Positions 1-21,130 of a stretch of DNA of 36,908 nt are shown here, in pieces. Numbering within the stretch: position 1 is the stretch's first letter; each line of letters opens with the position of its first letter. The position numbers and the translations under genes are program-made. The DNA comes from Caldilineae bacterium (GTDB lineage: Bacteria > Chloroflexota > Anaerolineae > DTLA01). The DNA lies in contig JBBIHX010000012.1 of the NCBI GenBank assembly GCA_037446815.1, forward strand, positions 1 through 36,908, read 5' to 3'. The notes under the pieces are model-generated. The model was not told where the DNA came from. It did not search any database and worked only from the letters and a program-made list of their open reading frames with translations.

Positions 1-307
1 CCGCCACTCGGTTCCAAAGCCTCTTGCTAACCGTCATTGCGAGGGCGCGAGCGGGAATACCACACCTAGCGCGGCGGCCTTAGCCCCGCGCGACCATCCC
101 TCCCCAACTGTCATTCTGAGCCGCGAAGCGGCGAAGAATCTCGCGCCATCGGGCCGCCACTCGGTTCCATCATGTGTTGGTGGAACCGTAGGAGCACTCT
201 CCTCGTGTGTCATTGCGAGCGAAGCGAAGCAATCCCACGCCCCGGGGATTGCTTCGGGCACTGCGTGCCCTCGCAATGACAGCCACCAACAGACTCTGGA
301 ACCGAAT
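1..307. repeat. Cluster of REP-like palindromic intergenic repeats (GTCATTCTGAG...GAAGAATCTC and GTCATTGCGAG...GAAGCAATC types)
   Basis: 106-144 is identical to 23426-23464 (39 bp). 247-307 reverse-complemented nearly matches 23359-23419. 6-38 resembles 30300-30332. 209-280 is an imperfect inverted repeat. Confidence 0.85.
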
Positions 308-325
308 CCTCCCCGCGAGTCGGTT

Positions 326-353
326 TTGCCATTCGCCCCGCGCCCGCTATAAT
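326..353 (+). promoter_or_regulatory. sigma70-type promoter for the ydcF-like/radical SAM genes
   Basis: TTGCCA-N16-TATAAT, about 35 nt upstream of ATG 388. Confidence 0.6.
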
Positions 354-387
354 GGGCGCAAAACTGCGGGGGCAGAACGTACAACGC

Positions 388-1059
388 ATGAAGCGCATTG
401 TCCTCTGGCTGCTAATCGGCGTCGCCGCGGGGTTTCTCGCGCTGTGCGCGGCCATCAACCTGTACGGCCTGTGGGACCAGGCCGCGCCCGCCGACGCCAT
501 CGTAACCCTGGGCGCGCGCGTCCTTGCCGACGGCTCGCCCGGCCCCGACCTCACCAGCCGCACCACCCACGGCGCCGCCCTGTTCCGCGCCGGCCTGGCC
601 CCCTACCTCATCTGCACCGGTGGGTTCCCAGGCGACCGCTCATCGGCTGCCGCCGTCGCCCGCAACCTCGCCGTGCAACTTGGCGTGCCGGCCGAGCGCA
701 TCCTCCTCGCCGAGGATTCCATGTCCACGCAAGAGGACGCCGAGCAGGTGGCCCGCATCATGCGCGAACGGCAGTGGACATCGGCCATCGTCGTCAGCCA
801 CCCGCTCCACCTGCTCCGAGCCCGCATCCTGTTCCAGCGCGAGGGCATCCACGTTCTCACCAGCCCCACGCCCCTGGCCCCGGGCGAAACGTCGCTGGAG
901 ACACGTGCGTACTACACCGTGCGAGAGGCCCTCGGCGTCATCGCCGCGCTCCTGCCGAAGGACTGGACCGGGCTGCTCCCCGGCGCGTCCACGCGCGTGC
1001 ACGCCCGCGCCGGCGACCTGCCCTCTCGGGCCGAGACTGCACCAGAGACTGCACCATGA
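388..1059 (+). CDS. YdcF/DUF218-family protein with N-terminal membrane anchor
   Basis: MKRIVLWLLIG hydrophobic start. Motifs ADAIVTLGA, LICTGG, EDSMSTQEDA, IVVSHPLHLLRA. Stop overlaps the next start (ATGA). Confidence 0.85.
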   Translation: MKRIVLWLLIGVAAGFLALCAAINLYGLWDQAAPADAIVTLGARVLADGSPGPDLTSRTTHGAALFRAGLAPYLICTGGFPGDRSSAAAVARNLAVQLGVPAERILLAEDSMSTQEDAEQVARIMRERQWTSAIVVSHPLHLLRARILFQREGIHVLTSPTPLAPGETSLETRAYYTVREALGVIAALLPKDWTGLLPGASTRVHARAGDLPSRAETAPETAP

Positions 1060-2684
1060 GCGACTGGCGTTCCATCCAGACGTTGCGAAGGCTCCTTGCC
1101 CAGGAAACCGGCTTCATCTCCAAAGACTGGGGCGGGCGCATCCCCATTGCCATGGCGTATCCCAACACCTACTACGTGGGCATGTCGGCGCTGGGATTTC
1201 AGACGCTGTACCGCTTGCTGAATGCCCACGGGGCGCTGGTGGCCGAGCGAGTTTTCTGGGACGAGAAGGCCGCAGGTCCTACCCTGTCCCTGGAATCCCA
1301 ACGGCCCATGAGCGACTTCGCCTTTGTCGCGTTCTCGGTTACCTACGAACTGGACTATTTCCACGTCGCCCTGATGCTCAAGCAGGCGGGGCTGCCGCCT
1401 CGCGCCGACGAACGCGGCGAGGACGATCCCATCATCCTCATGGGCGGGCCTGCGGTGATGGCCAATCCGCTGCCCCTGGCCCCTCTGGCCGACGCCATCT
1501 ACATCGGCGAGGTGGAGCCCGCGCTGGAGGCGCTGGCCGCCGCCCTGGAGTCCCGCGTGGAGCGCACCCGCGACGAGACGCTCCGGGCGTTGAGCGCCAT
1601 CCCGGGCTTCTACGTGCCCGCCCATCCGCGCCTGCCGGTGGCGCGCCGGTGGCTGCGCGACGTGGACGCCTTCCCGACCCACTCGTCCGTCCTCACGCGC
1701 CGCACCGAGTTCGGCGACATGTTCCTCATAGAGATCGCGCGTGGGTGCGGTCGCGGCTGTCGGTTTTGCCTTGCCGGTTATGTCTACCGCCCCATGCGCG
1801 AACGCAGCCTGGAGACCATCCTCGCCCAGGCGCGCGCGGGCCTGGCCCATCGCCGCAAGATCGGCCTGGTCAGCGCCGCCGTGTCCGACTACTCTCGGCG
1901 CGACGAACTGGTGGCCCGCCTGCGCGAGATGGGTGCGCGAATCTCGGTCTCATCCCTTCGCGCCGACTCCCTGTCCCCCGCCCTGCTCCAAGCCCTGGCC
2001 GACAGCGGCACGCGCACCCTGACCTTTGCCCCTGAGGCCGGCTCCGACCGATTGCGCCGCGTCATCAACAAGAACATCTCCGAAGAGCAGATTCTGGCCG
2101 CAGCGGCCCTGGCGGCCCAGGCCCGTTTCCCCGAACTCAAACTCTACTTCATGTTCGGGCTTCCAACGGAAACAGAGCACGACATAGAGGAACTCTGCCG
2201 ACTGAGCCAGGCCGTGGCCCGAGCCTTCGGCGGCAGGGTAACCGTCAACCTCTCGCCGTTCGTGCCCAAGGCCCACACCCCCTTCGCGCGCGCCCCGATG
2301 CTGGCCGCCGACGAATTGGAACAGAGGCTTGCCGTCGTGCGGGCGCGCCTTCGGCCGACAGGCATCTCCGTCAAGGCCGACAGCGTGGCGTGGGCGCGGG
2401 TTCAGGGCGTGCTGGCGCGCGGGGGCACAGAACTCGCCGATGTCATCGGGGGGATGGAGAGCGTTTCGCTGACCGCGTGGCGTGCGGCGCTGGCGGCGCG
2501 CGGCCTGTCCGAGGAGGCGTACCTGGGGCCTGTGGCGCCGTCCAGTCCCATGCCGTGGGAGGGCATCATCGCGTCCGGCGTTACCGACGCGTACCTCGCC
2601 CGCGAGCAGCGCGCCGCCGAGCAAGGCCGCGCCACTGCGGGTTGTCCGCCCTCCGGCTGCACCCGTTGCGGCGTCTGCCCGTAA
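1056..2684 (+). CDS. Radical SAM protein with B12-binding-like N-terminal region (TIGR03960-like)
   Basis: CxxxCxxC motif RGCGRGCRFC, YPNTYYVGMSALG, TFAPEAGSDRLRRVINK, FVPKAHTPF, C-terminal CxxxxCxxCxxC. Start MSDWRSI at the ATGA overlap. Confidence 0.85.
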   Translation: MSDWRSIQTLRRLLAQETGFISKDWGGRIPIAMAYPNTYYVGMSALGFQTLYRLLNAHGALVAERVFWDEKAAGPTLSLESQRPMSDFAFVAFSVTYELDYFHVALMLKQAGLPPRADERGEDDPIILMGGPAVMANPLPLAPLADAIYIGEVEPALEALAAALESRVERTRDETLRALSAIPGFYVPAHPRLPVARRWLRDVDAFPTHSSVLTRRTEFGDMFLIEIARGCGRGCRFCLAGYVYRPMRERSLETILAQARAGLAHRRKIGLVSAAVSDYSRRDELVARLREMGARISVSSLRADSLSPALLQALADSGTRTLTFAPEAGSDRLRRVINKNISEEQILAAAALAAQARFPELKLYFMFGLPTETEHDIEELCRLSQAVARAFGGRVTVNLSPFVPKAHTPFARAPMLAADELEQRLAVVRARLRPTGISVKADSVAWARVQGVLARGGTELADVIGGMESVSLTAWRAALAARGLSEEAYLGPVAPSSPMPWEGIIASGVTDAYLAREQRAAEQGRATAGCPPSGCTRCGVCP

Positions 2685-4126: not shown

Positions 4127-4429
4127 CTATCGGCCCGTTCGGTGTTTCTCAAAGCACTCGCGGCAATAGACGGGGCGGTCGCCGCGAGGTTCAAAGGGAA
4201 CTTCGGTCTGTGCGCCGCAGTCCGCGCAGACGACGGAGTACATGCGGCGTGGTCTGGGGTTGTCCGAGCCGCCCGGCCGAGGGTTGCCGCGGCGGGACGC
4301 GCGACACTCGGGGCAGCGGGTCGGATCGTGGGTAAAGCCCTTCTCTCGGAAGAACTCCTGTTCCCCGGCTGAGAACACGAATTCTTTGCCGCAGTCACGG
4401 CAGATCAATGTTTTGTCGGCGAATGCCAT
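4127..4429 (-). CDS. Zinc-ribbon domain protein with CxxC-x17-CxxC domain
   Basis: MAFADKTLICRDCGKEFVFSAGEQEFF...PTRCPECR and CADCG...VPFEPRGDRPVYCRECF. AGGAGG RBS. Confidence 0.9.
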   Translation of the reverse strand: MAFADKTLICRDCGKEFVFSAGEQEFFREKGFTHDPTRCPECRASRRGNPRPGGSDNPRPRRMYSVVCADCGAQTEVPFEPRGDRPVYCRECFEKHRTGR

Positions 4430-4598: not shown

Positions 4599-4726
4599 CG
4601 TCCCTTGCCGATCGCCTTTGCCCATCGCGGAAGCCGCGCGGGCGAGAAACGGGTTACCATACGGAAAATCTAGACCTAGCCATCCTCAGCGATGGAGCCC
4701 CAGGCTCCGAGCGTACATCCACGGAT

Positions 4727-4755
4727 ACTATACCATGCTTTTGCAAATATGTCAA
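4727..4755 (-). promoter_or_regulatory. Strong sigma70 promoter upstream of the zinc-ribbon gene
   Basis: TTGACA-N17-TATAGT with extended -10 TG. Confidence 0.8.
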
Positions 4756-4767
4756 GCCCTTTTTGTT

Positions 4768-4830
4768 GTAGCCGTACCGGCCGAGAAGCCGCGCGAGGTC
4801 CGCGCCGCTCACATCTCTGGGCAGCCTCAT
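4768..4830 (-). pseudogene. hicA: 5' remnant of a HicA-family toxin gene
   Basis: ATGA overlap with the hicB-like stop. Reads MRLPRDVSGADLARLLGRYGY, a typical HicA N-terminus, then loses similarity before the GSH motif. Confidence 0.7.
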
Positions 4831-5036
4831 GCCACCATGACCTCTTCACGCACCACATGCATGCGGATGAGATCGGGCAAGTCGTCTTCGTCAAAGTGGC
4901 ATTTCACGGCATCCCGGATCGCCGCCTTCAATTCGTCCCAGGTATCGGCTTCTGTAAAGATTGAGTGTCCCAGCGCCCGAGCCGTGTAACCGCCTTCCGG
5001 CGCTTCTTCAATGAGGAGAATTACTTCTTTCGCCAC
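4827..5036 (-). CDS. Short HicB-like antitoxin (69 aa)
   Basis: MAKEVILLIEEAPEGGYTARALGHSIFTEADTWDELKAAIRDAVKCHF is a HicB/RNase-H-like fold pattern. GTG start with GGAGGG RBS. Coupled to the hicA-like start. Confidence 0.8.
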   Translation of the reverse strand: MAKEVILLIEEAPEGGYTARALGHSIFTEADTWDELKAAIRDAVKCHFDEDDLPDLIRMHVVREEVMVA

Positions 5037-5139
5037 GTTCCCTTGTCCCTCCACGTGCAAGGCCCGTGCACGCCAACCCATGCCGGCCTGCAAGGACTGC
5101 CTCTCGGTGTCCTGCGCCTGCTTCCTGACTCTACAAGAC

Positions 5140-5167
5140 ATTCTACCACATCTGCGAGACGCGTCAA
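5140..5167 (-). promoter_or_regulatory. Putative sigma70 promoter of hicBA
   Basis: TTGACG-N16-TAGAAT with extended TG. Confidence 0.5.
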
Positions 5168-5380
5168 CAACCGTCCGGGCTGCCGACCATGGCGCCGACG
5201 GAGCGACGCGCGGCGCGCCTGGGAAGCGGCGTCGCTTTCGGCCCCGCGCGACCCGCCGCGATTGTCGTTCTGATCGGTGCAGCGCGAAGAATCTCGCCCT
5301 CTGTTCGCGCAATCCGTGTTATCCGTGGATACAACCCCGGAGGTTGCCTCGCACCAATGGCAGTCCCGGCGAGCGCCGCG

Positions 5381-5420
5381 CAAACAAACAAGAGGGGCTA
5401 CCGCACGGGCGGCAGCCCCT
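5381..5420 (-). terminator. Intrinsic terminator of the hydrogenase operon
   Basis: AGGGGCTGCCGC-CCGT-GCGGTAGCCCCT stem followed by CTTGTTTGTTTG on the minus strand, about 30 nt after the last stop. Confidence 0.65.
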
Positions 5421-5451
5421 CCATCGCCTTGTATATGGGACTACGCTACGC

Positions 5452-6366
5452 TTACTCCACGCTCTCCATCTTGATGTGCCGCCGACTGATGAGGAACGCC
5501 CCGATGGTGGCCACTGCGCTCAGCCCGATGACGACGGCCTCTGCGGGCTGCAGGATGTTCTTCCACGCGCGGGCCAGGGTGGGCGTCGCAACGCTCATCG
5601 GCAGCGCGTAGCGGCCCGGCTCGTCCAACAGGATGCTCAGCCGATTCAGCCCTCCCGCCTGGGTCTCCCCGTAGAGCGCCGCCCGGTCAAATCCGCGCCC
5701 CTTCAGGAACGAGACCCGCTGCTTCGCCTTGTCCAGCAGTTCGTCGCGGCGGCCCCATACCAGAGCCCCCACCGGGCACGTGGTGGCGCAGAACGGCCCG
5801 CCGATGCCGGCGTAGATGCGATCTTGGCAGAAGGTGCACTTGGCCGCCTTGGCCTCGCCGGTGAGCGCATTCGCCACCCGAAGGTGCGGCACGCCATACG
5901 GGCAGAACTGCGTGCAGTAGCCGCACCCGATGCACTTCGCCTCATCGTAGCCGGTGAACCCCCTGGGGTCCTTGTACAGCGCCCCCGAGGGGCACACCGT
6001 TACGCACGCGGCATCGGTGCAGTGCATGCACTGGTAGTTGACGAAATGCCAGTCGGTATTGCTTCGCTTGCTCAGTTTGATGAGCGTCCAGGTATCCGCC
6101 GACAGGCTCCGGGGCGTGTCGTACAGTTTCGCCGCGCCGACCGCCTCCACGGGCAGCCGCGCCGCCGTCTGGGTATCCGCGGGCAGTTTGTTCCATCGCT
6201 TGCAGGCCATCTGGCAAGCGCGGCAGCCCACGCACTTGGACGCATCAAACAGGATGGCGAGCGGCGCATCCGCCGGCGCGGCCTGCGCCAGGCCCGTCGG
6301 CCGTATCGCCCCGGCAGCCAGCAGAAGCCCCGAGAGTTTCAGGAAGTCTCTGCGGTTGATGTCCAT
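5452..6366 (-). CDS. Tat-exported 4x[4Fe-4S] electron-transfer protein (HybA/HupX/FdnH-like) with C-terminal membrane helix
   Basis: NRRDFLK Tat motif. CVGCRACQMAC, CMHCTDAACVTVCP, CIGCGYCTQFCP, CTFC...PFCATTCP. C-terminal hydrophobic helix. Confidence 0.9.
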   Translation of the reverse strand: MDINRRDFLKLSGLLLAAGAIRPTGLAQAAPADAPLAILFDASKCVGCRACQMACKRWNKLPADTQTAARLPVEAVGAAKLYDTPRSLSADTWTLIKLSKRSNTDWHFVNYQCMHCTDAACVTVCPSGALYKDPRGFTGYDEAKCIGCGYCTQFCPYGVPHLRVANALTGEAKAAKCTFCQDRIYAGIGGPFCATTCPVGALVWGRRDELLDKAKQRVSFLKGRGFDRAALYGETQAGGLNRLSILLDEPGRYALPMSVATPTLARAWKNILQPAEAVVIGLSAVATIGAFLISRRHIKMESVE

Positions 6367-6372
6367 AGGCTC

Positions 6373-6909
6373 TTACCTACCTTCCTCACGTCCGACCGTC
6401 GCAAGGGGTTCTCGGGCCTGGGCATTGTGCCGTTCCGCGCGGGGGCGGATTCCCCACCGCGACAATTCGGCCAGCACCCGACCCACCAGCGCGCCCATCT
6501 GCGCGGCGATAGATGGCGACAACTCCAGGCCGGTGTCAATGACCTCAGGCTCCACGCCCACAAGCACCAGTTCCCGCGGGAACGTGCCGCGCAGGCGAGT
6601 CGCCGCCAGCAGGTCCGCCAGGCCCATCTGGTGGGGCGAGATTTTGATGCCCAAGCAGGCGGGCACCTCATCTCCGCTCAGGCGAACGAGGGCCCCAGGC
6701 GGGTTGCCCATCGCCACAGCGTCCACGATGAGCACGCGGTCCGCCTCTTCCATGTAGTGCAACAGGTCCAGCCCAAGGGTTCCCCCGTCCAAGACCTGCA
6801 CGTCGTCTGGGAACTCAAACCGTTCCGCCAGACGCTGCACGACCCGAACGCCCACGCCCTCATCGCGCAGCAGGATATTGCCCAGGCCGAGTACCAACGT
6901 CTTCCCCAC
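6373..6909 (-). CDS. Hydrogenase maturation endopeptidase (HyaD/HybD/HupD family)
   Basis: LVLGLGNILLRDEGVG, DGGT, IVDA, SPHQ motifs. Confidence 0.93.
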   Translation of the reverse strand: MGKTLVLGLGNILLRDEGVGVRVVQRLAERFEFPDDVQVLDGGTLGLDLLHYMEEADRVLIVDAVAMGNPPGALVRLSGDEVPACLGIKISPHQMGLADLLAATRLRGTFPRELVLVGVEPEVIDTGLELSPSIAAQMGALVGRVLAELSRWGIRPRAERHNAQAREPLATVGREEGR

Positions 6910-6912
6910 GGG

Positions 6913-8622
6913 CTACATGCTTCCGTCAATGCGGATGCGCGTGAGTTCGCGCCCGCGGGCGTCCACCACATGCACCGCGCACGCCATGCAAGGGTCAAAC
7001 GAATGAATCGTGCGCAGAATCTCAACGGGCTGCTCCGGGTCCGTTACCGGCGTGCCGATGAGCGCGGCCTCGTAGGCACCCGGCTGGCCTTTGGCATCCC
7101 TGGGCGACGCGTTCCATGTGGAAGGCACAACACACTGATAGTTGGCGATCTTGCCGTCCACAATGTGCACCCAGTGCCCCAGCGCGCCGCGCGGAGCCTC
7201 GTGGAAACCCCACCCTTTGGCCTCTTTGGGCCATGTGGCGGGATCCCACTTCTCGCCGTTGTGCACCTTGAGGTCCCCATCCGCCATGCGGGTGGCCAGT
7301 TCGTCCAGCCAGGAGATGAGTTTTCCCGCGACGACGGCGGTCTCAATACCTCGGGCCGCGGTGCGCCCCAGCGTGGAGAACAGCGCCTCCGCGCCGACGC
7401 CGAGTTTGGCGAGCACGGCGTCCACCAGCGTCTTGACCTCGGGCCGGCCCGCCACATAGGCCACCAGCACCCGCGCCAGTGGGCCCACTTCCATCGCCTT
7501 GTCGTCGTACCGCGGAGCCTTGAGCCACGAGTACTTGCCGTCCGTCTGCAAGAATTCGTAGGGCGGCCTTGGCCCCGTGTAGTTCGGCTGCGTCTCCCCG
7601 TCCCACGGGTGCTTGGACACCCCATCGCCCGCCCCGTACCGATACCATGAATGCGCCACGTACTCGGCGATCTTGGTGTGGTCCAGGGGGTGCAGGGTGC
7701 TCAAATCGCGGTTGAGGATGACCCCCGACGGGAACAGCATCGTGCCTGCCGCGTCAGGGAACTCGCCGTAGGCCAGGAAATTGCCCAAGCCCTCACCCAG
7801 CCCGGCCCACTCCTTATAGAACGAGGCCACGGCGAGCAGGTCGGGGATGTACACCTGGTCCACGAACTGCTTGGCCTTGACGAATAGCCTGCGGATCAGG
7901 GCCAGTTTGTCGGCGTTGATGGCCGTCTCGCTGTCTGGATCCAGCGTGATGGACATGCCGCCCACCAGGTAGGTCTGCGGGTGGGGGTTCTTGCTGCCCA
8001 GAATCGCGTGGACGCGGATGACATCCCGCTGCCAGTCCAGCGCCTCCAGGTAGTGGGCCACGGCCATCAGGTTGGCCTCCGGCGGGAGTTTGTACGCCGG
8101 ATGACCCCAGTAGCCGTTGGCAAACGGCCCCAACTGGCCACTCTGCACGAAGGCGGTGAGTTTGTCCTTGACGGCCTTGAAGTAGTCGGCGCTAGAGTTG
8201 GGCCAATCGGAGATGGATTGGGCCAGTTGGGAGGTCGCCACGGGGTCTGCGCGCAGGGCGCCGGTTACATCCACCCAGTCCAGGGCGTGCAAGTGGTAGA
8301 AATGAATCACATGGTCTTGAACATACTGAATCCCCGCGATGAGGTTGCGGAGGATGCGGGCGTTATCGGGAATCCGAATTCCCAGGGCGTCTTCTACGCT
8401 TCGCACGGAAGCGACGGCATGCACCGTTGTTCAGACGCCTCATATGCGCTGGGCCATGAGCCAGGCTTCGCGGGGATCGCGGCCCTTTTGGATGATTTCC
8501 AGCCCGCGGAACATGGTGCTGGAACTCCAGGCCTCGGCCACGCGCCCGTTCTCCACCTTGGCCTCAATGCGCAGATGCCCTTCAATCCGGGTAACGGGGT
8601 CAATCGCGATTCGCTCGGCCAC
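6913..8622 (-). CDS. Group 1 [NiFe]-hydrogenase large subunit, 569 aa, with two in-frame TGA codons (61 and 64) at the N-terminal CxxC ligands; predicted di-selenocysteine protein
   Basis: ORFs 8440-8622 and 6913-8424 are in the same frame: CAG CGC ATA TGA GGC GTC TGA ACA ACG GTG CAT = QRI*GV*TTVH, matching canonical QRICGVCTTVH. N-term IDPVTRIEGH and MFRGLE, KNPHP, EAPRGALGHW, C-term SFDPCMACAVH plus cleavable tail. AGGAG RBS before GTG 8622. Confidence 0.9.
8368..8427 (-). promoter_or_regulatory. Candidate bacterial SECIS-like hairpins 3' of the two TGA codons
   Basis: ACGGT-GCAT-GCCGT (8414-8427), CGCTTC-CGTGC-GAAGCG (8397-8413), GGGAAT-TCGG-ATTCCC (8368-8383). Confidence 0.55.
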
Positions 8623-8624
8623 TT

Positions 8625-9725
8625 TTACTCCTCCTCTTTCTCCTTGCTGAGACGACTGGCCGCCACCGCGCCCGCGGCGCCGACTACCAGGCCGGCAGCA
8701 GCGCCGATGGCCCCTGCAGCCGCGGGAGAAAGCCCTCCGGCAGCAGCCTCCACCTCGGGGTACGCGCTCGGTGGGGTCAACTGGTGGATGGGCACCGGCT
8801 CATAAGCAGGGCTTTCCCAGAAGTTCGGGGCGGCGCAAGCGATGCATCCGTGCCCCGCGCCGACGGGCCAACTGGTGCCTTCGTTCCAGCGGAGCGTAGG
8901 GCAGTTGTGGAATGCCACCGGCCCCTTGCACCCCATCTTGTACAAGCACCATCCCTTGCGATGGCCTTCATCTCCCCATGCCTGCACGAACTCTCCGGCG
9001 TCAAAGTGCCCGCGCCGCTCGCAGTTGTCGTGAATCCGCCGCCCGTAGGCAAACAGGGGCCGGCCCAGGTCATCCACCGCCGGCAGGCTCCCAAAGGTCA
9101 GGAAATGCACCACCGTTGCGGTCAGGTTGTCCACGTTGAACGGGCAGCCCGGCAGGTTCACGATGGGGACGCCCGAGATCACGTCTTTCACGCCCTTCGC
9201 GCCGGTGGGGTTAGGTGTTGTCGCGGGCCAGCCCCCGTAGAAGGCGCAGGCGCCCACCGTGATAACGGCGGCCGAATGCCCCGCCACTTCCTTGAGAATA
9301 TCCAGAGCCGTGCGCCCGCCGATGCAACAATAGATGCCGTCATCTGCCGTCGGTATGGAGCCTTCAACGACCGTGAGGTACCCGCCCTCGGCGACCGTGT
9401 CCGCCAAGGATTTCTCGGCGCGCTTGCCGGAAGGGGCCATAATCGTCTCGTGGTAGTTGAGGGACAGGGTATCCAGCACCAGTTCTGCGACGGTGGGCCT
9501 GTTGGCGCGGAGCAGCGATTCGGTGCATCCGGCGCAGTCCTGCATCTCCAGCCAGACCACCGCCGGGCGCTTGGCGGACTCCAGCGCCCGCGCGATCCTG
9601 GGCGTGAAACTCGCGGGCAGGGCCAGCGTCCCCGCCATAATCGCGCAGAACTTCAGGAACTCCCGGCGGGATACCCCGTGCTGAGTGAGAGCGGTTTTCA
9701 AGGGGCCTTTCTGGTGTCTCTCCAT
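8625..9725 (-). CDS. [NiFe]-hydrogenase small subunit with Tat signal and C-terminal membrane anchor
   Basis: SRREFLKFC Tat motif. DCAGCTES, VGACA, LPGCP (proximal cluster), IHDNC...CLYKMGC (distal), C...SWP...HGCIAC (medial). Hydrophobic C-terminus. GGAGG RBS. Confidence 0.95.
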   Translation of the reverse strand: MERHQKGPLKTALTQHGVSRREFLKFCAIMAGTLALPASFTPRIARALESAKRPAVVWLEMQDCAGCTESLLRANRPTVAELVLDTLSLNYHETIMAPSGKRAEKSLADTVAEGGYLTVVEGSIPTADDGIYCCIGGRTALDILKEVAGHSAAVITVGACAFYGGWPATTPNPTGAKGVKDVISGVPIVNLPGCPFNVDNLTATVVHFLTFGSLPAVDDLGRPLFAYGRRIHDNCERRGHFDAGEFVQAWGDEGHRKGWCLYKMGCKGPVAFHNCPTLRWNEGTSWPVGAGHGCIACAAPNFWESPAYEPVPIHQLTPPSAYPEVEAAAGGLSPAAAGAIGAAAGLVVGAAGAVAASRLSKEKEEE

Positions 9726-9933: not shown

Positions 9934-9962
9934 ATTATAGCATGCTATACGATAAATGTCAA
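9934..9962 (-). promoter_or_regulatory. Consensus sigma70 promoter of the hydrogenase operon with overlapping palindromic operator
   Basis: TTGACA-N17-TATAAT with extended TG. Perfect palindrome TATAGCATGCTATA at 9936-9949. Confidence 0.8.
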
Positions 9963-10118: not shown

Positions 10119-13100
10119 TCAAGGTATCTCCCAGGTGCATCCCTCGGCGGCCAGAATCCAGTATCCCTTGCCGGGCTCCAGCAGCCGCAGGTCGTTGACG
10201 AAGTCGGGCGCGCCCGGCCTGTACCGCCGCCATGTGCCGCCCCACGCGCTCGCGTCGTAGGTCATCACCGCTACGATCTTGTCGGCGATGGGGGCCAGGG
10301 CGGTCTCTGGACTGCGCGGCTCCGTGGCGGGGAACCCCACCATGTTCCACCCCGCATACAGCGGAATCTGTGTCCCGCTGGGCGGCTGGCCCTGTACCCT
10401 CAGCGTTGTCGGCGCGATGACCTTCACCCACATCCCCATGCGCTCATCCACAAACGTCAGCGAGTTGGCTCCCGGCGGCATCAGCGGGCTGTACGATTTC
10501 CAGGTTCCCGCGCTCGCGTCCCAGTAGTACACGCTCACCAAGACATCCGATATGGGCCCGAACAGCACATCTGGGTTATTGGAACTGGGCACCACGGGCA
10601 GCGAGATGAGGTTCCACCCCTCGTGAAGGGGCACGCCGGGCGTCGTGGCCGTCCCCGTAGCGGTGGGGGTGGGCGTGGGCGTATCCGTCGGCGCGGGCGT
10701 AGGCGTCCACGTTGCCACGGGCGTGTCCGTCGGCGTGGGCGTCGCGGTCGGCGTCCGCGTCGCCGTGGCCGTGTCCGTCGGCGCGGGCGTGGCGGTCGGC
10801 GTCCACGTCGCCGTGGGCGTGTTCGTCGGCGCGGGCGTCGCGGTCGGCGTCGCGCTGGGGATAGGCGTCGGCGTGGGCGTCGGCGTCCACGTTGCCGTGG
10901 GCGTGTCCGTCGGCGTGGGCGTCTCGCTGGCCACCGAATACGCCACCTGCAACAGCGGCCGCTTGGACACGTCCGGATACTCCGCCGAGGCGAATCGGTA
11001 CTCCACGGAGCCGCCCGTGGACGCGCCCCTCACCACCAGGCCGAAGTTCTCGCTCGGGTGCGTTACCCAATGCCGCACCGAATCGGAGACGTCCACCGTT
11101 ACGGCGCTGTTGGCCGCGTCCATGTGGAACGTCGTGCCGGTGGCCGTGCGGTCGTAGGTGGTTCCGTTGCAGCCATCAACTTCCCACCGCTCGCCGGCCC
11201 GCGGCTGCTGCCATGTGGCCTCCGTAGCGACCCAGGGCCGTAGCACGCGGTACACCAGCCCGTCAAACATGTTGCCGTTGCTCTGGTACGTGGCGTACAG
11301 CGTGAGCGACGCGCTGATGACGTTGGCGCCCGACGGGATGGACGACACATCAAACCGCACCAGCCCCGCCATCACGTCGTAGGTGCGGACGCTGAAGTGC
11401 GTGAGGCCCGCGAAGTTGCTCGTGGGCTGCCACTGATCCATGTACGTGTCCACGCTCCCCGTGTAGCCATTGGCGCCGAAGCGGAACGTGGCCGTCTGCA
11501 CGGGGCCGCCCGGCGTGGGCGTCGGCGGGACAGGCGTGGCACTCGCGGTATGGGTTGCCGTCGCCGACGGCGTGGGCGAAGGCGTCGCCGTGGGCTGCGG
11601 GGTGCCGGTGGGAGTGGGCGTCGCCGAGCCGGTGCGGGTCGCGGTTGGCGTCGGCGAGGCGGTGGGTGTCCGCGTGGGCGTCGCCGTCGGCCCGCCGGGC
11701 CAGTATTCTATGATGAGTTTCGGGCGGATAGAGGCGTTGGTATTCTCCGACGAGGCAAACGTGTAGCCCACCGAGTTGCCCCCCGCGTCCCGCAGCAATA
11801 GCCCCAAGTTGGTCGCGGGCACGGCTACCCAGTTCCGCACAATGTCGGTAACATCCAGGCTGACCCACACGTTCGTGATGCTGGGCGGCGGCTGCTGCAT
11901 GTCCGTGGCCGTGGCCGAGCGGTCCTGATTGGGCGGCTCCGTGCTGTTGCAACCGGCCAGGCCCCAGAAGGTACTGCTGGTGGCGCGGTTCCACGTGGCG
12001 CCCGACTCCGTCCAAGAGCGCATGACCTGATATGGGCTGAAGTAGGCCGAGCCGGCATTGCTTCGCGCCGTGAGGTAGATTTCCAGCCGCGCCGAGCCTA
12101 CCGACGCGCCCGCGGGCAGCGGCGACAGGTCAAACCGTAGCAGCGCCGAATGGATGTCCTGCCGCCCGTAGTCGTAGTTGCCGCCGCGAATGCTGAAGGT
12201 CGGCTCGTTCCCGTAGTTGGTATCCTTGGCCCACCAATCTATCAGCGTGTCGGTCGCGCCCGTATATCCATTCAGCCCCTGCTGGAGCGTGAGGACGGTA
12301 GGCGGCGTGGACGGCGTCGGCGTCGCCGTCGCCGTGGGGGCAGACGTCGGCGTGCGCGTCGGCGGCTGGCCCTCCAGGGTGTACTGGACAACGAGTTTCG
12401 GCCGCACGGCTCCGTCCTCGTAGTCGGCCCCCGCCAGGCTGTATTGCACCAGTTCGGCCATGGTGCACGTGGACTTCAGCACCAGGCCCTGGTTGTTCGC
12501 GGGGTCCAGCACCCATGCTTGCACCATGTCCGTTATGTCAAAGGTGTACCAGCGGTTGGTGTACTGGAGCCAAATCTCTTCGCCGCCGATGTTGGAGCGG
12601 TCGGTGCCGATGCCGTTGCAGCCGGGCGTGGCCCAGGGCGCGCTGCTGGTGGCGCGGTTCCAGGTGGCCTGCGAGTCCACCCACGGCCGCAGGACGGCAT
12701 AGGGCCGGGCGCACATGTAGGCGCTGTTGCTCTGGCCTACCGTGTACACCTGGAGTTGCGCGTTCAGAATGGTGGCATTGCTCGGGATGCTGCTCACGTC
12801 AAAGCGCAGGAGCGATGCGATGATGTCCCCCGAGCGCACGATGAGGATCGTGTCCCAGTTGTAGTTGGAATCGTCGCTGTAGTCCGAGATGTACGTATCG
12901 CGCACGCCGCCGTAGCCATTCAGCCCCTGCTGGAAGGTAACGGTGGTGGTGGCGGGCGTGGGGCCGGGCGTGAACGTGGGCGTCTGCGTGGGTGTGGCGC
13001 TGGGCGTGCGGGTTGGCGGGGCCGGGGGGCCCGGGGTGAAGGTCGGCGGCCGCGGCGGTGTGTTGCTCGGGGTGGCAGGGACAGGCGTCGGCGTCGGGGT

Positions 13101-14765
13101 GGACGTCGGGCCGGCGCTCCCGCTCTTGGTAACGTCCACGAAGTGGATGTACTCGTCGCCGTCGCTGCGTCCGTCAAGGTAGAAGTCGCTCCCCCCGGCC
13201 AGGCTGTTGGCAAACCGCGCGTTGGGCAGGACGAAGGTCGCTTTCTTCCACGTGAGGCTGTTGGTCTTGTATACGCTGCCGCCGAGCCGCTCGCCCGACG
13301 TGGAGTCGTAGAACAGGTCCCAGCGGTCGGTCCCGCGGTCAAAGTACGTAACGGTAACCGTTACGGTCTGGTTGCCGTTGTACAGGTACCCATCGTCCAC
13401 CTTGAAGAACATGTAGGGATTGCCGGAGGAAGCATCGGTGCGGCGGGTGATCCACGACTCCTTGCCCACCCACGAGCCGCCCAGGTTCACCCCCTGCTCC
13501 GTCTTGTTGGTGATGGCGCAACCGGAAGTGGTGGTGGGGAAGTTCAGCCCTGTGCGGTAGGTTACGACCACCGTCTTGCCGCCGGGCACCGAATCGTCCT
13601 GGTACAGCCAGAAACTGAAGTTGCCGCACTCCGGATACCACGAATAGCCCGACTCGCGCATGGCCACCCACACGCTGGGCGTGTCCTGCAACGTCCGCCC
13701 CAGGTATCGGTTGGCGAACTCCAGGATGGGGAAGTTGTAGTAGCGGATGTTGCCCTGGGCGTCCTGCAACAGCCACCCGCGCCAGTCCTGGGGCGAGTAG
13801 TCAAGGGTAAGCCAGGTGTTGTGGCGATGGAGGACGCCGAGCACGCCCCAGTAGGTCTCCTCTTCGGTCGGCGTCATGTACTGGTACGCCTCTTGTCCGG
13901 TGGGATACGTCAGGCTCCACTTGTGGATGGGGTCCACCGTCCCGCAACCCTCAAAGCCGGGCTTGTCGGGGATGTACTGCGAATCCGCGTCGGCCTGCAT
14001 CGCGGCGTGGAAGTCGCCGATGCCGTAGGTGAGCGCCGCGTAATCGGTCCACTCCTTGCGCTCGCAGATGTGCTGGAAGCGCGGCGTGCCCGGAATCACC
14101 ACGCGGGTCGTGTGGAAGGATTGGCCGTACATGTCCACAATCTGCTTGACGGTGCTGACCCACAGCGGCCCCGAAAGCCCGTTGTCGCGCATGCACTGAT
14201 CGTAGGCCTCCACGCAAGGCTGTGTCTCGCCGTACACGCCCACGCCCATAATGACGAACTCCAGGCGCGGGTCGCCGTCAAAGCGCTGGCCGAGGGCGCG
14301 CACGAAGTTGCCGTACTTCTGCAAATAGGCCCAGTGCCAGTACTTGGGAATCTGCTCCGAGCCGCAGGTCAGGACCGCATCGGGGTAGCGGCTCTGGAAC
14401 CACGAGGGGACCATCAGGCCGCCCGCCTGGCCTGCGTAGGTCTGCAAGTGCAGGGCAGCCGGCTTGCCTTTGGCCCACTGGGAGGCCAGGAAGTTCTCAA
14501 TCAGGTCCCAGCGATATTGCCCCTCGCTCGGCTCCAGTTGCTTCCAACTGAAGGTCATATGCCCGCCGACGATGGGCCATTGAGCGGGGTCCAGGTTCGC
14601 GCTGTCGCGGGCCACGTACACGCCCGGCCGGGGCGTGGCGGGGGCGGCATTGCTGCGAATGCCCTGCGCCGAACTGTAGTTCCGCCCACCCGCGCTCAGC
14701 CCGACGACGGTGAAGCACACCACCACCGCCGCAATCCAGAGAAAGCGAGATCGGCTTGTCCTCAT
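10119..14765 (-). CDS. Large secreted multidomain protein (1548 aa): GH-A/beta-galactosidase-like N-terminal domain, three DNRLRE-like domains, Pro/Thr linkers, C-terminal GWN-repeat domain
   Basis: Signal peptide [16 protein letters not shown] with [24 protein letters not shown]. Three repeats of QGLNGY.G..DT.I.../LLRFDVS/ATW/RPKL. PT-rich spacers. EGWNLISLP and AGWNMVGFP. Confidence 0.8.
10640..10925 (-). repeat. Degenerate coding tandem repeat encoding a Pro/Thr linker (about 16-aa unit [16 protein letters not shown])
   Basis: Repeated GGCGTCGGCGT/GGCGTCCACGT blocks; translation is TP-rich. Confidence 0.8.
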
Positions 14766-14979
14766 GTCGCAATCGCTCCTGATGTCGGATGTAAAACCCC
14801 TAGTGTAGAGTGTATCCGTGTATCTTCCACGCCGCAATGGGGAAATGGTACCATGGGCGCTTCGGAGCGGGCCGTTCCGACGGTGGCGCGGCCTGCCCCG
14901 TGGGGGGCATTCACCCTCCTGTAACGCCGCGAGCCCGCGCCGAGATACGCCCTGGCGCACGCAACGGCAGTTGCAGGCC

Positions 14980-15380
14980 GTCATTGCGAGGGCGTGAGGC
15001 ACCCGAAACAATCCCACGCCCCCCATCCGCCCCATCTGTGCTATCCGTGGATAGCGGTTCTCCATTCGCGTGGATTCGTGCTATTCGCGGTTACACGAAC
15101 CGTCATTCTTCGCCGCTTCGCGGCTCAGAATCTTGCCCCCCATCCGCTCCATCCGTGCTATCCGTGGATGCAACCCTGGAGATGCTTCGCCTTCGGCTCA
15201 GCATGACAGACGGGGTCAACGTGCGACGCACCTCGGAGGTGCGTCGCACGTGAACTCCCTCACTCCACCCCTCTCCGGACGGGCGACCAGGCGCCCACCG
15301 TTATCCCGAGCGGCGAAGAATCTTATCCACCATCCGCGCCATCCGCGCTGTCCGTGGATACCCGTCCTCTATTCGCGGTT
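14980..15380. repeat. Dense cluster of mixed REP-like repeats
   Basis: GTCATTGCGAGGG...AATCCC, CTTCGCCGCTTCGCGGCTCAGAAT, TCGCCTTCGGCTCAGCATGACA, three (A/G)TCCGTGGAT-ending units, and a 33-bp palindrome at 15219-15251. Confidence 0.8.
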
Positions 15381-15397
15381 ACAATTGTGCAAGCCCC

Positions 15398-15426
15398 TTG
15401 CCAGAAACGTCGCGTTGCGCTATCAT
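15398..15426 (+). promoter_or_regulatory. Putative sigma70 promoter of yedF
   Basis: TTGCCA-N17-TATCAT. Confidence 0.6.
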
Positions 15427-15459
15427 AAAGGCAGAACTCCCGACGTTCAGGAGGCGCCC

Positions 15460-16056
15460 ATGGGCAAAATCGTTGACGCGCGCGGGCTTCCGTGCCCGCA
15501 GCCCGTAATCCTCACCCGCAACGCGCTCGCCGAAGAGGCGTCGGTTACCACCATTGTGGACAACGAAACGGCCCGCCAGAACGTGCAGCGCATGGCGCAG
15601 GGCCTCGGCGCCGACATCCGCGTGGAAATCCGCGAGGACGGCATCTACCTGCACATCTCCCGCGCATCGCAGCCGCAGGCCGTGCCCCAACCCGCGGCGG
15701 AGGCCACGCCGGCGTCGGGGCCGCTGGTGCTGGTGGTGCCCGGCGAGTTCATGGGGCGCGGCGACGACCCCGAACTGGGCCGCATCCTGATTCGCGCCTT
15801 CTTCCACACCCTCGGCGAGGTGGAGCCGTTGCCCGATGTCATCATCTTCTTCAATGCAGGCGTCAAACTGGTGGTGGAAGGCTCGGCGGTGCTGGACGAC
15901 CTCAACGCCTTGTGCGGGCGCGGGGTGAAGGTGCTGGCCTGTGGGACATGCCTGGGCCACTTCGGGCTGAAGGACAAAGTCGCCGTGGGCGAAATCTCCA
16001 ACATGTACACCATCGCCGAGACCATGCTGCGGGCGGGCAAGGTGGTCAGCCTGTAG
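15460..16056 (+). CDS. yedF: Sulfurtransferase-like selenium metabolism protein YedF (TusA-like + DsrE-like domains)
   Basis: VDARGLPCPQPVI TusA motif. MGRGDDPELGRILIRAFF, FFNAGVKL, LACGTCL, VGEISNMY. AGGAGG RBS. Confidence 0.88.
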   Translation: MGKIVDARGLPCPQPVILTRNALAEEASVTTIVDNETARQNVQRMAQGLGADIRVEIREDGIYLHISRASQPQAVPQPAAEATPASGPLVLVVPGEFMGRGDDPELGRILIRAFFHTLGEVEPLPDVIIFFNAGVKLVVEGSAVLDDLNALCGRGVKVLACGTCLGHFGLKDKVAVGEISNMYTIAETMLRAGKVVSL

Positions 16057-18272: not shown

Positions 18273-20159
18273 CTACTGCCCGGACGGAGCCACCGCGCAG
18301 CGCACGGCATCATCGGCCAGCCGCGCGCCGCTCCCATCGGTTGCCACCCAACGTGTGCCCACCGACGGCTCCCACACACCGAAGGCGACCGTGAGAGGGC
18401 CGGGCGGCGCGTCCCGGAACACGCGCACGTCGCGCACCGTATCGCCCTGTCGCCACTGCGCGATGGGATACAGCCCCCGGATGGGATCGCCGTCCGCCTG
18501 GGCCACGAGGCGCCCATCGGCATCCAGCAGGTGAGCGAACACCGTTGGCCCGCCGTCCTCCTGCGCCGTCAAGTGCCACGTTGCAATCAATGTAACTTGC
18601 CCGCCCTCCCTCCGACAGTCCGCCGACAGGAGCAGAAGACGGTCGCCGAAACGCGCCAGGGGCGTGGATATAGCCGCCGAGGGCATCACAGCGCCGGCCT
18701 CCTCCAGCGCCATCGTCCCGCCGGCGTGGTACGTCGTAACCATGACGCGCCCCGCTGCGCGGATGTCGTCCGGCGAGAGCGGCGGCCCAGCCAGTTCCAC
18801 CCTATACGGCAGCGACGGCAAGATGCTCCCCGCCGCGCGCTCAAAGGCCGCGCCCGCCTTCCCCGTGTGCACCTGCACCAGCAGGTCGGCGTCCGACGGC
18901 GGCGGCATGGGGATGACGCCCTCGTGGCCCAGGGGATACATCCGCGTCGGCGGCGTGATGCGCCCGGGCAGGTTGACGAGAAGCACAGGTCCGGCCTCGT
19001 CCGCCGCGCCAATGGCCTGCCACAGGATGTCGCCCGCGCGCCCGTACAGGCCCATCGTCCGATGCACGAACATTGCGGCCGGCGCCAGCGCCGCGACTGC
19101 CACCGCCGCGCCGATTGCCACGCGAACCCACGCGCGCCTGGCCGCCGCGAGGCTCGTCAGCCCCGCCGTCCAGAGCATCGCCACGCCCGCCGCGCCGACG
19201 TACAGAACGCGGGGCGGGTCGCGCATCCAGTCATACTGCTGAGTCGCAAGGGGTATGGCGCTCCAGAGAACCGCCCAAGCCGCGCCCAGCAGGAGCAGCC
19301 GCGCCTGCCTGGCCCGCACGGCCGCCCAGGCCAACGCCCCCGCCACGCCGGCCATCGCCGCGACCGAAAGGGGCCACACTGCCCCCCCAAGGCGATGCGT
19401 CCACGTTAGGACGGGGGCCAGCGGATACGCCGCCGCCAGAATCGCCATGGCCAGATTCGCGCCCCAGTTGCCGACATTCAGCGAGTAGGCCGTCCCCGCA
19501 GGCGCAAAGTGCAGCACGCACGCCAGGGGCACCGCGCCGGCCAACAGATACGGCGCCGCCCTCCGCACATCGGGCCTCGGCGCGGTCAACAGCACAGCCA
19601 GAAACGCCACAGGCCCCGCCATCACCGCCGGCTCGTACGCGAACCCGGCCAGCGCCACCAGCGCCAGGCCCGCCGCGTAGCGCCAACCTGCGCCCGCGCC
19701 CAACAGGATACCCCCCAGCGCAAGGGCCACCGCCAACGGGTACGACAACGACGACGCCCACGCTACCGCGTCCGTCGCGAAGGGAAACGCCGCGAACAGC
19801 GCCGCTGCCAGCGCGGACGCCGCCACGGGTCGGCGGCTCCATCGGCTCGCCAGGATGCCCACCAGCGCGCCGCATAGCGCATGCCCCAGGAGATTCAGAC
19901 CGTGTGCAACCGCCGGCGTGAGCAAGCCGACCCAATCCAGGAGTTTCCACAGGCTGAAATGCAGCGGCCGATAGTCGCCGTAGGGACTCACGGAGCGCCA
20001 CAAGTCCAGCAGAGGCGTGGCGCGCACCCACAGGACTTGCAGGAGATCATCGGAGTAGAAGGGCAAGCCGATGGCGCGTCCGTACAGCACCACCGTCAAA
20101 GCGAACGCAGTGAGCAGGGCTATCGCAGCCTCCCTGCGCCGCCCGACCATCCTCGCCAT
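18273..20159 (-). CDS. Polytopic membrane protein, GT-C/PMT-like N-terminus with extracytoplasmic C-terminal domain
   Basis: FYSDD acidic motif after TM1, YRPL, about 11 hydrophobic helices, C-terminal TVFAHLLDADGRLVAQADG...WRQGDTVRD module. Confidence 0.65.
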   Translation of the reverse strand: MARMVGRRREAAIALLTAFALTVVLYGRAIGLPFYSDDLLQVLWVRATPLLDLWRSVSPYGDYRPLHFSLWKLLDWVGLLTPAVAHGLNLLGHALCGALVGILASRWSRRPVAASALAAALFAAFPFATDAVAWASSLSYPLAVALALGGILLGAGAGWRYAAGLALVALAGFAYEPAVMAGPVAFLAVLLTAPRPDVRRAAPYLLAGAVPLACVLHFAPAGTAYSLNVGNWGANLAMAILAAAYPLAPVLTWTHRLGGAVWPLSVAAMAGVAGALAWAAVRARQARLLLLGAAWAVLWSAIPLATQQYDWMRDPPRVLYVGAAGVAMLWTAGLTSLAAARRAWVRVAIGAAVAVAALAPAAMFVHRTMGLYGRAGDILWQAIGAADEAGPVLLVNLPGRITPPTRMYPLGHEGVIPMPPPSDADLLVQVHTGKAGAAFERAAGSILPSLPYRVELAGPPLSPDDIRAAGRVMVTTYHAGGTMALEEAGAVMPSAAISTPLARFGDRLLLLSADCRREGGQVTLIATWHLTAQEDGGPTVFAHLLDADGRLVAQADGDPIRGLYPIAQWRQGDTVRDVRVFRDAPPGPLTVAFGVWEPSVGTRWVATDGSGARLADDAVRCAVAPSGQ

Positions 20160-21130
20160 TATGTCAACTCCCGCCCCTTGCCCGAATCGGTAACCTCGGC
20201 CAGCGCCTCCGGGTACGGGTCAAAGAAGACCTGTTCCGCCAGGTACGCGTTGTCAAACCGCACAATCCACGCGCGAAGGATGGCGACGGCGGCGCTGAGC
20301 GGAATCTTCCGGTCGCGGTACCGTTCCAGCGTGTCCAGGAAGAGCGCCTTCTCCCGCGCCGACAGGCCGTCGGAGAAATAGCCCAGGGCGTGCATGAGGA
20401 CGTTGATAATGGCGCCGGCCCGCGGCGGACGCGACAGCGCCTTGCCGAAGTGCGCCCGATAGTCGGCGGCCACATCGGCAAACGGCCGCCTGTCCGGGTT
20501 GGCAACCACGCGGCCCAGGGTGCGCAGCGCGGTCTGATTGTAGGCCATCAGCAGCAGTTTGTGGCGCGCGTGGAAGGCCACCAGGTCGCGCATGGCGCCC
20601 GATGCCAGGGTCTCGCGCAGGCGCGCCAGCGCGAATACCCGCGTGAGGAAATGCTCGCGAATGCCGAAGTTGGTCAGCCGCCCCTCGTCCTCCACGGGCA
20701 AGTCGCCGAACCGCTCCAGCACCGCCGCGGCGAAGAACCCCGCGCCCTTGCCCGAGGGGGATGTGGCCTCAGCGGTGGGGTACACCTTCACATCCTTGAT
20801 GCCGCAGGACGGCGAGCGGCTCTTGAGGATGAATCCATCCACGTCGCCGACGGCATCCAGGTAGCCCTGCGCGAAGCGGGTCATCTCGGCGGTAACGTCC
20901 CTGCCGGTCGCGGGCTGAATCAGCCGCAGTTCGCCCCCCACCGACACGACGCGCACCGGATCGCGCGGCACGCCCAGGCCAATCTCCACCTCGGCGCACA
21001 CGGGGACGAACTCCACATGCGGCTCTAGGAGGCTCACGAACGCGTCGGGGATGGTTACGCCGTTCCAGCGGCACGCGGCGAACCCCAGGCACCTACTCAC
21101 AACGATTCGGGGCTTGGGAAACTGGGACAT
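20159..21130 (-). CDS. DUF523 (thiouracil-desulfurase-like) + DUF1722 (YbgA) protein
   Basis: VSRCLG...CRWNG, VCAEVEIGLGVPR, FILKSRSPSCG, VEDEGRL, FHARHKLLLMA, YLAEQVFFDPYP. Confidence 0.88.
   Translation of the reverse strand: MSQFPKPRIVVSRCLGFAACRWNGVTIPDAFVSLLEPHVEFVPVCAEVEIGLGVPRDPVRVVSVGGELRLIQPATGRDVTAEMTRFAQGYLDAVGDVDGFILKSRSPSCGIKDVKVYPTAEATSPSGKGAGFFAAAVLERFGDLPVEDEGRLTNFGIREHFLTRVFALARLRETLASGAMRDLVAFHARHKLLLMAYNQTALRTLGRVVANPDRRPFADVAADYRAHFGKALSRPPRAGAIINVLMHALGYFSDGLSAREKALFLDTLERYRDRKIPLSAAVAILRAWIVRFDNAYLAEQVFFDPYPEALAEVTDSGKGRELT

Follow-up and report, generated by a model that had tools for sequence, protein, structure and literature searches.

To our knowledge, the only natural selenium variant of hydrogenases studied so far is the type with one terminal selenocysteine (Sec) in the C-terminal motif, and we know of no characterised hydrogenase with a selenium bridge. 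This canonical [NiFeSe] type comprises the Group 1a HysAB enzymes of sulfate reducers and the methanococcal Fru and Vhu enzymes, in which the single Sec occupies the first position of the C-terminal motif DPUxxC and serves as a terminal ligand. The accessible parts of two reviews tabulate the C-terminal UxxC motif alone for hydrogenase large subunits (PMC9312934, PMC13188914), and the main text of the BSepDB paper (PMC13326102) does not mention hydrogenases. Sec codons in the N-terminal motif were described in silico in September 2026, when Takano et al. (PMC13582414) reported UXXU, CXXU and UXXC forms among the [NiFe] hydrogenases of Group 4. In the portion of that paper available to us, UXXC and UXXU are called previously unrecognised, Groups 1-3 are left out of the survey, and earlier N-terminal CXXU cases from Groups 1 and 3 are cited, Baltazar et al. 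2011 being the reference for Group 1. Single Sec substitutions at the N-terminal (L1) positions of Escherichia coli Hyd-1 yielded active enzymes with 3% and 13% of native activity that were nearly inactive at 10% O2, and the same source states, in the part accessible to us, that nature usually swaps the terminal C576 position for Sec (Evans et al., PNAS 2021, PMC8020662). Here we describe a [NiFe]-hydrogenase large-subunit gene with UGA codons at both N-terminal cysteine positions. It lies on a stretch of 36,908 nucleotides (nt) from a Caldilineae bacterium (positions 1-36,908 of contig JBBIHX010000012.1, assembly GCA_037446815.1; the whole stretch is referred to as the window), and its product is best seen as the counterpart, within Group 1, of the N-terminal Sec variants reported recently.

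The gene occupies positions 6913-8622 on the minus strand. With TGA read as Sec (U), its frame from 8622 to 6913 encodes 569 residues, starting with a GTG that has GGAGG eight bases upstream and ending with TAG. Positions 8451-8419 of the minus strand read CAG CGC ATA TGA GGC GTC TGA ACA ACG GTG CAT, and the L1 motif consequently becomes R-I-U-G-V-U. UGA-61 (8440-8442) takes the first cysteine position of L1 and UGA-64 (8431-8433) the second, which are the terminal Ni ligand and the Ni-Fe bridging ligand, respectively, according to the accessible part of PMC13582414. Both TGAs align to the two cysteines of QRICGVCT in the Allochromatium vinosum enzyme (3myr_B, E 7.5e-226, query 2-551), and residues 39-551 match positions 1-508 of the 508 positions of the Pfam profile PF00374 (E 1.6e-239). 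All four metal-ligand positions (N-terminal RxCGxC, C-terminal DPCxxC) are thus in place, the N-terminal pair as TGA and the C-terminal pair, C545 and C548 of the L2 motif DPCMAC (6979-6996, minus strand), as ordinary cysteine codons of the TGC/TGT type. His551 is followed by a C-terminal extension of 18 residues, whose cleavage is predicted from sequence. U61 and U64 are the sole departures from translation table 11 and the sole in-frame stops, and neither further stops nor frameshifts occur across the 569 codons. An earlier model-made inspection of the letters, here called the sequence-only reading, had placed the two TGAs on the L1 cysteines of an otherwise intact 569-codon frame with an all-Cys L2 motif; rereading of the minus strand, the alignment to 3myr_B, the translation and the full profile coverage agree with it on each of these points.

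The large subunit is, judged by homology, a Group 1 periplasmic uptake hydrogenase, an assignment made at the level of the group and not of the HydDB subgroup (1c, 1e or 1f). The best 40 matches in the PDB are all membrane-bound or periplasmic Group 1 enzymes, namely the A. vinosum membrane-bound hydrogenase (MBH), Salmonella Hyd-5, E. coli Hyd-1 and Hyd-2 and Desulfovibrio [NiFe] hydrogenases. Homology to the standard members (A. vinosum MBH 3MYR, E. coli Hyd-1 and Hyd-2, D. vulgaris MF) extends over the full length (E 1e-163 to 1e-226), and a small subunit with a twin-arginine translocation (TAT) signal, a HyaD/HybD protease and the C-terminal extension after His551 are shared with them. Unlike the window enzyme, however, the members with solved structures all carry Cys at each of the four ligand positions. 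The equivalog cutoffs of NCBIfam were not reached for Hyd-1 (659.8 of 1101 bits) or Hyd-2 (630.5 of 969), nor for the HysA-type models NF045518 (410.5 bits, cutoff 780) and NF033181 (565.7, cutoff 600), and NuoD models scored 21-24 bits against cutoffs of 360-459.

As in canonical [NiFeSe] hydrogenases, a Ni-ligand Cys would be replaced by UGA-encoded Sec, and HysAB is likewise periplasmic and Group 1. However, HysA-type PDB chains align to part of the large subunit only (E ~1e-100, query 158-561), and whereas their Sec is C-terminal, the window enzyme has DPCMAC there and its Sec codons at the N-terminal terminal and bridging positions. As far as the accessible text of PMC13582414 goes, the Group 4 variants have in common with our set the TGA at one or both cysteines of the N-terminal CxxC, the all-Cys C-terminal motif, a single SECIS-like hairpin (SECIS, selenocysteine insertion sequence) downstream whose loop has G as its first or second base, a patchy spread across the phylogeny that takes in Chloroflexota, and truncation of the genes by gene callers. 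They are energy-converting, NuoD-like membrane complexes, in contrast to the TAT-exported uptake type found here, and UXXC was seen among them but in none of our 80 relatives (see below). The sequence-only reading had known of no natural precedent for a two-selenium centre, which no longer holds given the Group 4 UXXU reported in silico in that source. For Group 1, full-text literature searches, with subscription journals and supplements outside their coverage, returned no report of UXXU. The engineered Hyd-1 variants C76U and C79U carry Sec at the same two ligand positions; according to the available text of PMC8020662 they are single substitutions made via UAG and EF-Tu, whereas the window gene combines both positions in a natural sequence that is conserved under selection.

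A search for homologues with TGA at one or both positions, and an analysis of substitution rates behind the stops, had been proposed by the sequence-only reading. Scanning one genome per species yielded 619 relatives; we retained the best 80 and read their L1 codons. Both codons are TGA in 17 loci, TGY (TGC or TGT) is followed by TGA in five, both are TGY in 58, and TGA followed by TGY was found in none; TGA thus occupies the first position in 17/80 and the second in 22/80. Together with the window, the set comprises 81 genes, 23 TGA-bearing and 58 Cys-type. By their labels, eight of the TGA/TGA loci belong to Anaerolineae, Thermoflexus or Chloroflexota, six to Nitrospirota or Thermodesulfovibrio, and one each to Thermodesulfobacteriota and Methylomirabilia; one unlabelled record (L043) groups with the Nitrospirota/Thermodesulfovibrio loci. 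Hence the TGA/TGA or TGY/TGA state, present in 22 of the 80 relatives, spans at least four phyla, and protein divergence among the TGA/TGA assemblies reaches about 30%. As TGA recurs at both codons in 17 of 80 relatives that were assembled independently, chance is excluded. In-frame stops of all 23 TGA-bearing genes are confined to the L1 positions, and DPCxxC with Cys at both positions is present in 79 of the 81 genes, the exceptions being L044, which meets a contig end, and L065, which has a frameshift. The latter (L065:2717-4198) loses the frame in its 3′ third (494 amino acids (aa), no L2 motif), probably through an assembly error in this metagenome-assembled genome (MAG). In another record, L039:9056-11704, the frame stays open upstream of the real start over about 310 codons.

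The ratio of non-synonymous to synonymous substitution rates (dN/dS) was calculated for 15 selected pairs, of which 12 gave values on both sides and three had saturated dS, using the 60 codons upstream of the TGAs and about 500 downstream. It was 0.03-0.16 upstream and 0.05-0.27 downstream, which is indicative of purifying selection without relaxation behind the stops; by this measure, the downstream region is constrained as much as the upstream region. Database proteins reflect the same situation. Among the 120 best of 8000 scored, 22 are fragments of 497-506 aa that start at residue 67 or 73, just past the second TGA; they originate from JGI, ENA, Logan and NCBI and share 80-95% identity with the window or with TGA/TGA loci. 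The expectation that gene callers would miss such genes was therefore justified. Full-length Cys-type relatives occur at 83% identity (P0002-P0006). One full-length JGI protein of 572 aa (P0009) is 98.4% identical to the TGA/TGA locus L010 and shows Cys at both L1 positions, so that we have either a Cys allele that arose very recently or a database entry that prints U as C.

Downstream of the two codons, the minus strand can fold into a SECIS-like hairpin (8397-8413), in which a stem of 8413-8408 with 8402-8397 encloses the loop CGUGC (8407-8403). Its start lies 17 nt behind UGA-64 and 26 nt behind UGA-61, distances that we take to count as shortly downstream by the usual SECIS spacing range. 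Separate alignments of 69 nt from the first L1 codon were built for the 23 TGA-bearing and the 58 Cys-type genes. For the TGA-bearing genes, RNAalifold returned a stem of six pairs, joining columns 30-35 to 41-46, with a loop of 5 nt. Of the 138 cells in these columns, 92.0% are paired, and 23 show compensatory double changes distributed over three pairs (GC/UA/AU, GC/CG and CG/UA). In none of 500 shuffles was the pairing or the covariation score as high as observed, and pairing fell to 33-60% when the partner was slid. In the Cys-type genes, by comparison, the same columns are 50.9% paired, which is no better than slid versions (35-56%). All six pairs are present in 18 of the 23 TGA-bearing genes; in L003, L043, L046, L064 and L065 the register is shifted by one, with a bulge (-9.5 kcal/mol). 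The mean minimum free energy of the 21-nt segment is -8.74 kcal/mol in TGA-bearing against -3.78 kcal/mol in Cys-type genes, and the loop codon is GTG in 23/23 of the former versus 18/58 of the latter. The loop variants, CGUGC, CGUGA and GGUGA, all have G at the first or second loop position, a feature of bacterial SECIS elements according to the available part of PMC13582414.

The lower stem of the hairpin is built by the codons of residues 71 and 75 (8410-8412 and 8398-8400, minus strand), and these residues covary: A/S (GCU..AGC), C/A (UGC..GCA), S/A (AGC..GCU) and A/G (GCC..GGC). As these compensatory changes are non-synonymous and coupled, RNA pairing appears to dictate the amino-acid pair. 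From covariation, position and loop we infer that the hairpin acts as a bacterial SECIS, a function that remains a prediction. Two other structures were discarded. A long-range stem of GGCGUCU (8439-8433) with AGACGCC (8392-8386), obtained from a single-sequence fold (z -1.3), was by eye not kept in relatives and is taken as chance, and a second RNAalifold helix within columns 7-26 has no varying pairs and is uninformative.

In a quick, unrooted maximum-likelihood tree (LG+G4, Shimodaira-Hasegawa-like approximate likelihood ratio support), all 23 TGA-bearing genes fall inside one group of 60 (support 96) shared with 37 Cys-type genes. At least seven state changes are needed for the three states and six for any TGA versus Cys. 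A single clade for the 23 TGA-bearing genes was rejected by the approximately unbiased test (p 4.8e-54, log-likelihood difference 185), the group having been named after the tree was seen. Directly before UGA-61, at the Ile codon of the window gene (8443-8445, minus strand), 17 of the 18 TGA/TGA genes use ATA; CxxU genes have ATC, ATT or TTC there, and Cys types mostly other codons. Just two Cys-type genes, L012 and L067, carry ATA, and each keeps five of the six hairpin pairs together with the CGUGC loop. The ATA bias and these hairpin remnants point to recent reversions from Sec to Cys in L012 and L067.

Several explanations other than recoding can be weighed against these data. The identical TGA pair in 17 other assemblies, the low dN/dS downstream of the stops (about 0.1-0.2), the 569 codons free of other stops or frameshifts and the hairpin maintained through compensatory changes are difficult to reconcile with a pseudogene whose large subunit would be cut off after 60 residues by two nonsense mutations. 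Although the table 11 frame does end at codon 61 and the window operon is devoid of the cytochrome b gene of its sister loci, we regard this explanation as very improbable. Even less credible is a sequencing or assembly error or a genome-wide reassignment of TGA (for instance table 4 or 25), for which nothing speaks beyond the in-frame TGAs themselves. The same TGAs recur in independent assemblies and align with Cys only, never with Trp or Gly. In the window, which has a G+C content of 65%, the 24 family-supported genes end with TAG (10), TAA (8) or TGA (6), and TGA is the true stop in 8 of the 17 hydrogenase genes of the TGA/TGA relatives; TGA is thus a normal stop here and not reassigned. 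Among the TGA stops listed by the sequence-only reading, those at 1057-1059, 10119-10121 and 27628-27630 close supported genes, while the one at 4827 closes an open reading frame (ORF) without family match. A scan for further TGA-interrupted genes in the window and the 22 loci gave 264 candidates, mostly spurious in this GC-rich DNA; among the 26 put to Pfam, the one real read-through was a formate dehydrogenase in L011 (see below) and none lay in the window, the rest being neighbouring genes or without match. Recurrence, conservation of the frame and low dN/dS together exclude, for practical purposes, a pseudogene, an assembly error and chance. Recoding of both TGAs, as proposed by the sequence-only reading, is accordingly supported by recurrence, purifying selection and the covarying hairpin, while the proposal that both are read as Sec retains the status of its most plausible interpretation.

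We consider it likely that UGA-61 and UGA-64 are both decoded as Sec through SelB and the SECIS in a working Group 1 uptake hydrogenase operon. The sister Anaerolineae contig L011, a CxxU locus, is informative in this respect. Just upstream of its hydrogenase lies a gene group that starts with a formate dehydrogenase-N alpha subunit; this FdnG (L011:3562-6603, plus strand), which has a TAT signal, contains a single in-frame TGA at HQARI-U-HS and is full length on read-through (TIGR01553, 1186.7 bits, cutoff 814.2). As FdnG is a classic bacterial selenoprotein, the L011 lineage evidently decodes Sec. The gene precedes genes for an FeS protein and NrfD and is split by table 11 gene calling. UxxU motifs, moreover, are tabulated for other predicted bacterial selenoproteins in the accessible parts of two reviews (PMC13188914, PMC9312934). 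A single gene with a link to selenium was noticed in the window; it lies roughly 6 kb away from the hydrogenase operon and encodes YedF, with TusA and DsrE-like domains (approximately 15472-16056, plus strand, within the ORF 15070-16056; TIGR03527, 195.7 bits, cutoff 110), named a sulfurtransferase-like selenium metabolism protein by NCBI.

A number of observations weigh against decoding of both codons as Sec. Neither a tRNA-Sec gene nor selA, selB or selD was found in the 36.9-kb window, and no tRNA-Sec gene in the 22 TGA-bearing loci, whose flanks say little on whole genomes. No Rfam family matched the window at gathering thresholds, and between 8250 and 8550 only chance-level matches were obtained (E <= 10), which leaves covariation and position as the grounds for calling the hairpin a SECIS. 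The hairpin overlaps codons of the conserved peptide A-S-V-R-x-V, and related sequences can exceed shuffles even when no structure exists, for which the Cys-type control is the main safeguard. SECIS-dependent decoding is about 30-40% efficient in E. coli, as stated in the accessible part of PMC4513850, and two successive events of this efficiency would be costly. The most serious point concerns the inserted residue. The same SECIS/SelB route could employ a tRNA-ReC (selC*) that inserts Cys at one or both UGAs, and the mature enzyme would then be all-Cys or contain a single selenium, the codons serving as a selenium-independent or regulatory device. In the text of PMC13582414 available to us, tRNA-ReC-like genes are reported from about 56% of the genomes that have UXXU Group 4 enzymes and from about 2.3% of the remaining Sec-type genomes, with the remark that a single UGA or both may in that case be decoded as Cys. 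The comparative evidence presented here, that is codons, hairpin and dN/dS, fits Cys insertion as well as Sec. However, no tRNA-ReC-like tRNA was found in the window or in the flanks of the 22 loci, a weak argument given that only flanks were covered, and the CxxU genes in 5 of the 80 relatives together with the Sec-type FdnG beside one of them indicate ordinary use of Sec in this lineage. Furthermore, holding a costly recoding signal across four phyla just for Cys has no obvious benefit. We therefore judge Cys insertion by tRNA-ReC to be rather unlikely.

If both codons are read as Sec, the following sequence of events can be envisaged. The operon would yield a periplasmic, membrane-associated uptake hydrogenase from the small subunit, the large subunit, the protease and the HybA-like FeS protein. 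SelB carrying Sec-tRNA(Sec) would bind the hairpin and insert Sec at UGA-61 and again three codons on at UGA-64, giving R-I-U-G-V-U, with one hairpin presumably serving both UGAs. Hyp-dependent metal insertion and C-terminal cleavage would follow. In the resulting Ni-Fe site, U61 would be a terminal selenolate on Ni and U64 a bridging selenolate, complemented by the thiolates C545 and C548 of DPCMAC. The complex would then be exported with the small subunit through the TAT pathway and pass electrons on to the FeS protein, as in other Group 1 enzymes. SelB and tRNA(Sec) are the probable decoders and Sec the probable residue at both sites; the ligand roles are taken over from the literature and from homologous Group 1 enzymes of solved structure.

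The genes surrounding the large subunit support its assignment. Upstream, the small subunit of 366 aa (8625-9725, minus strand) matches PF01058 and PF14720, reaches 440.1 bits with TIGR00391 (hydA, cutoff 179.5) and has a TAT signal at residues 18-47 (TIGR01409). Downstream follow a maturation endopeptidase of the HyaD/HybD family (6373-6909, minus strand; PF01750, E 4e-35; TIGR00140, 169.3 bits, cutoff 151.8) and a 4Fe-4S protein with TAT signal and hydrophobic C-terminal tail (5452-6366, minus strand; Fer4_11, TAT_signal). The latter resembles HybA and FdnH and scores under the cutoff with both the formate dehydrogenase beta (194 bits) and the HybA model (178 bits). A promoter-like site, TTGACA-17-TATAAT with TG, lies upstream of the small-subunit gene (9934-9962, minus strand) and agrees with the sigma-70 consensus at 12 of 12 positions; it is a consensus match in a region that has three such sites where 1.1 are expected. 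At the other end, a terminator-like hairpin of 14 pairs precedes a T-rich tail (5391-5422, minus strand), a pattern match of a kind whose overall total is no higher than in shuffles. The small subunit, protease and FeS partner proposed by the sequence-only reading are thus borne out by family matches, and its promoter and terminator as pattern matches, and the minus-strand hydrogenase genes apparently form a complete transcription unit.

No cytochrome b or NrfD homologue was detected anywhere in the 36.9-kb window (tblastn, E > 0.6), and the membrane quinone-reducing partner may be encoded elsewhere in the genome. Among the relatives, the order small subunit, large subunit, cytochrome b, protease is found in 9 TGA/TGA and 43 Cys-type loci. 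Five TGA/TGA Anaerolineae loci have small subunit, large subunit, protease, FeS protein and cytochrome b, which is the order of the window except for cytochrome b; L014 is cut short. A Hyb-like order of small subunit, FeS protein, NrfD, large subunit and protease occurs in three CxxU loci and one TGA/TGA locus. The TGA state is therefore found in three operon layouts.

Further genes of the window were noted. Next to the hydrogenase promoter, upstream of it and likewise on the minus strand, 10119-15065 encodes an unrelated protein of 1648 aa with CBM96, disaggregatase-repeat and glycoside-hydrolase-42-like domains. Downstream of the operon, the ORFs at 4654-5312 (minus strand) have no family match; HicA/HicB, suggested by eye for the two small ORFs at 4654-5033 (minus strand), was dropped because no NCBIfam match was found at E <= 0.01. 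A protein with a CxxC-x17-CxxC domain (TIGR04272) is encoded at 4127-4429 (minus strand), and a fusion of 2-thiouracil desulfurase and DUF1722 at 20159-21130 (minus strand). The 825-aa product of 207-2684 (plus strand) is a B12-binding radical SAM protein (TIGR03960, under the cutoff); a DUF218 ORF (352-1059) lies within it in another frame, and at most one of the two overlapping ORFs is real.

Group 1 [NiFe] hydrogenases are the best understood hydrogenases structurally and electrochemically. If our interpretation is true, a natural Group 1 enzyme with Sec at both N-terminal ligand positions and near full-length homology to a solved structure would offer an experimental handle on selenium at these sites. 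It would also be a candidate case for two UGAs decoded from one bacterial SECIS, and a case in which RNA pairing forces coupled amino-acid changes, at residues 71 and 75. Since an engineered single Sec lowers activity, yet selection keeps the pair, compensating features must exist in the natural proteins. On balance we favour the broader view that a multi-phylum set of Group 1 enzymes naturally builds a Ni-Fe centre ligated by selenium twice, once terminally on Ni and once as a bridge between Ni and Fe, with a single SECIS for two UGAs, and that its members have repeatedly switched between Sec/Sec, Cys/Sec and Cys/Cys. Such repeated switching suggests an environmentally tuned catalytic property, for example catalytic bias or tolerance to O2 or sulfide. 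As predicted from these sequences, N-terminal Sec-type Group 1 hydrogenases are widespread yet hidden by gene calling; because callers split or shorten the genes, the H2-oxidising capacity of Anaerolineae and Nitrospirota MAGs would be under-annotated.

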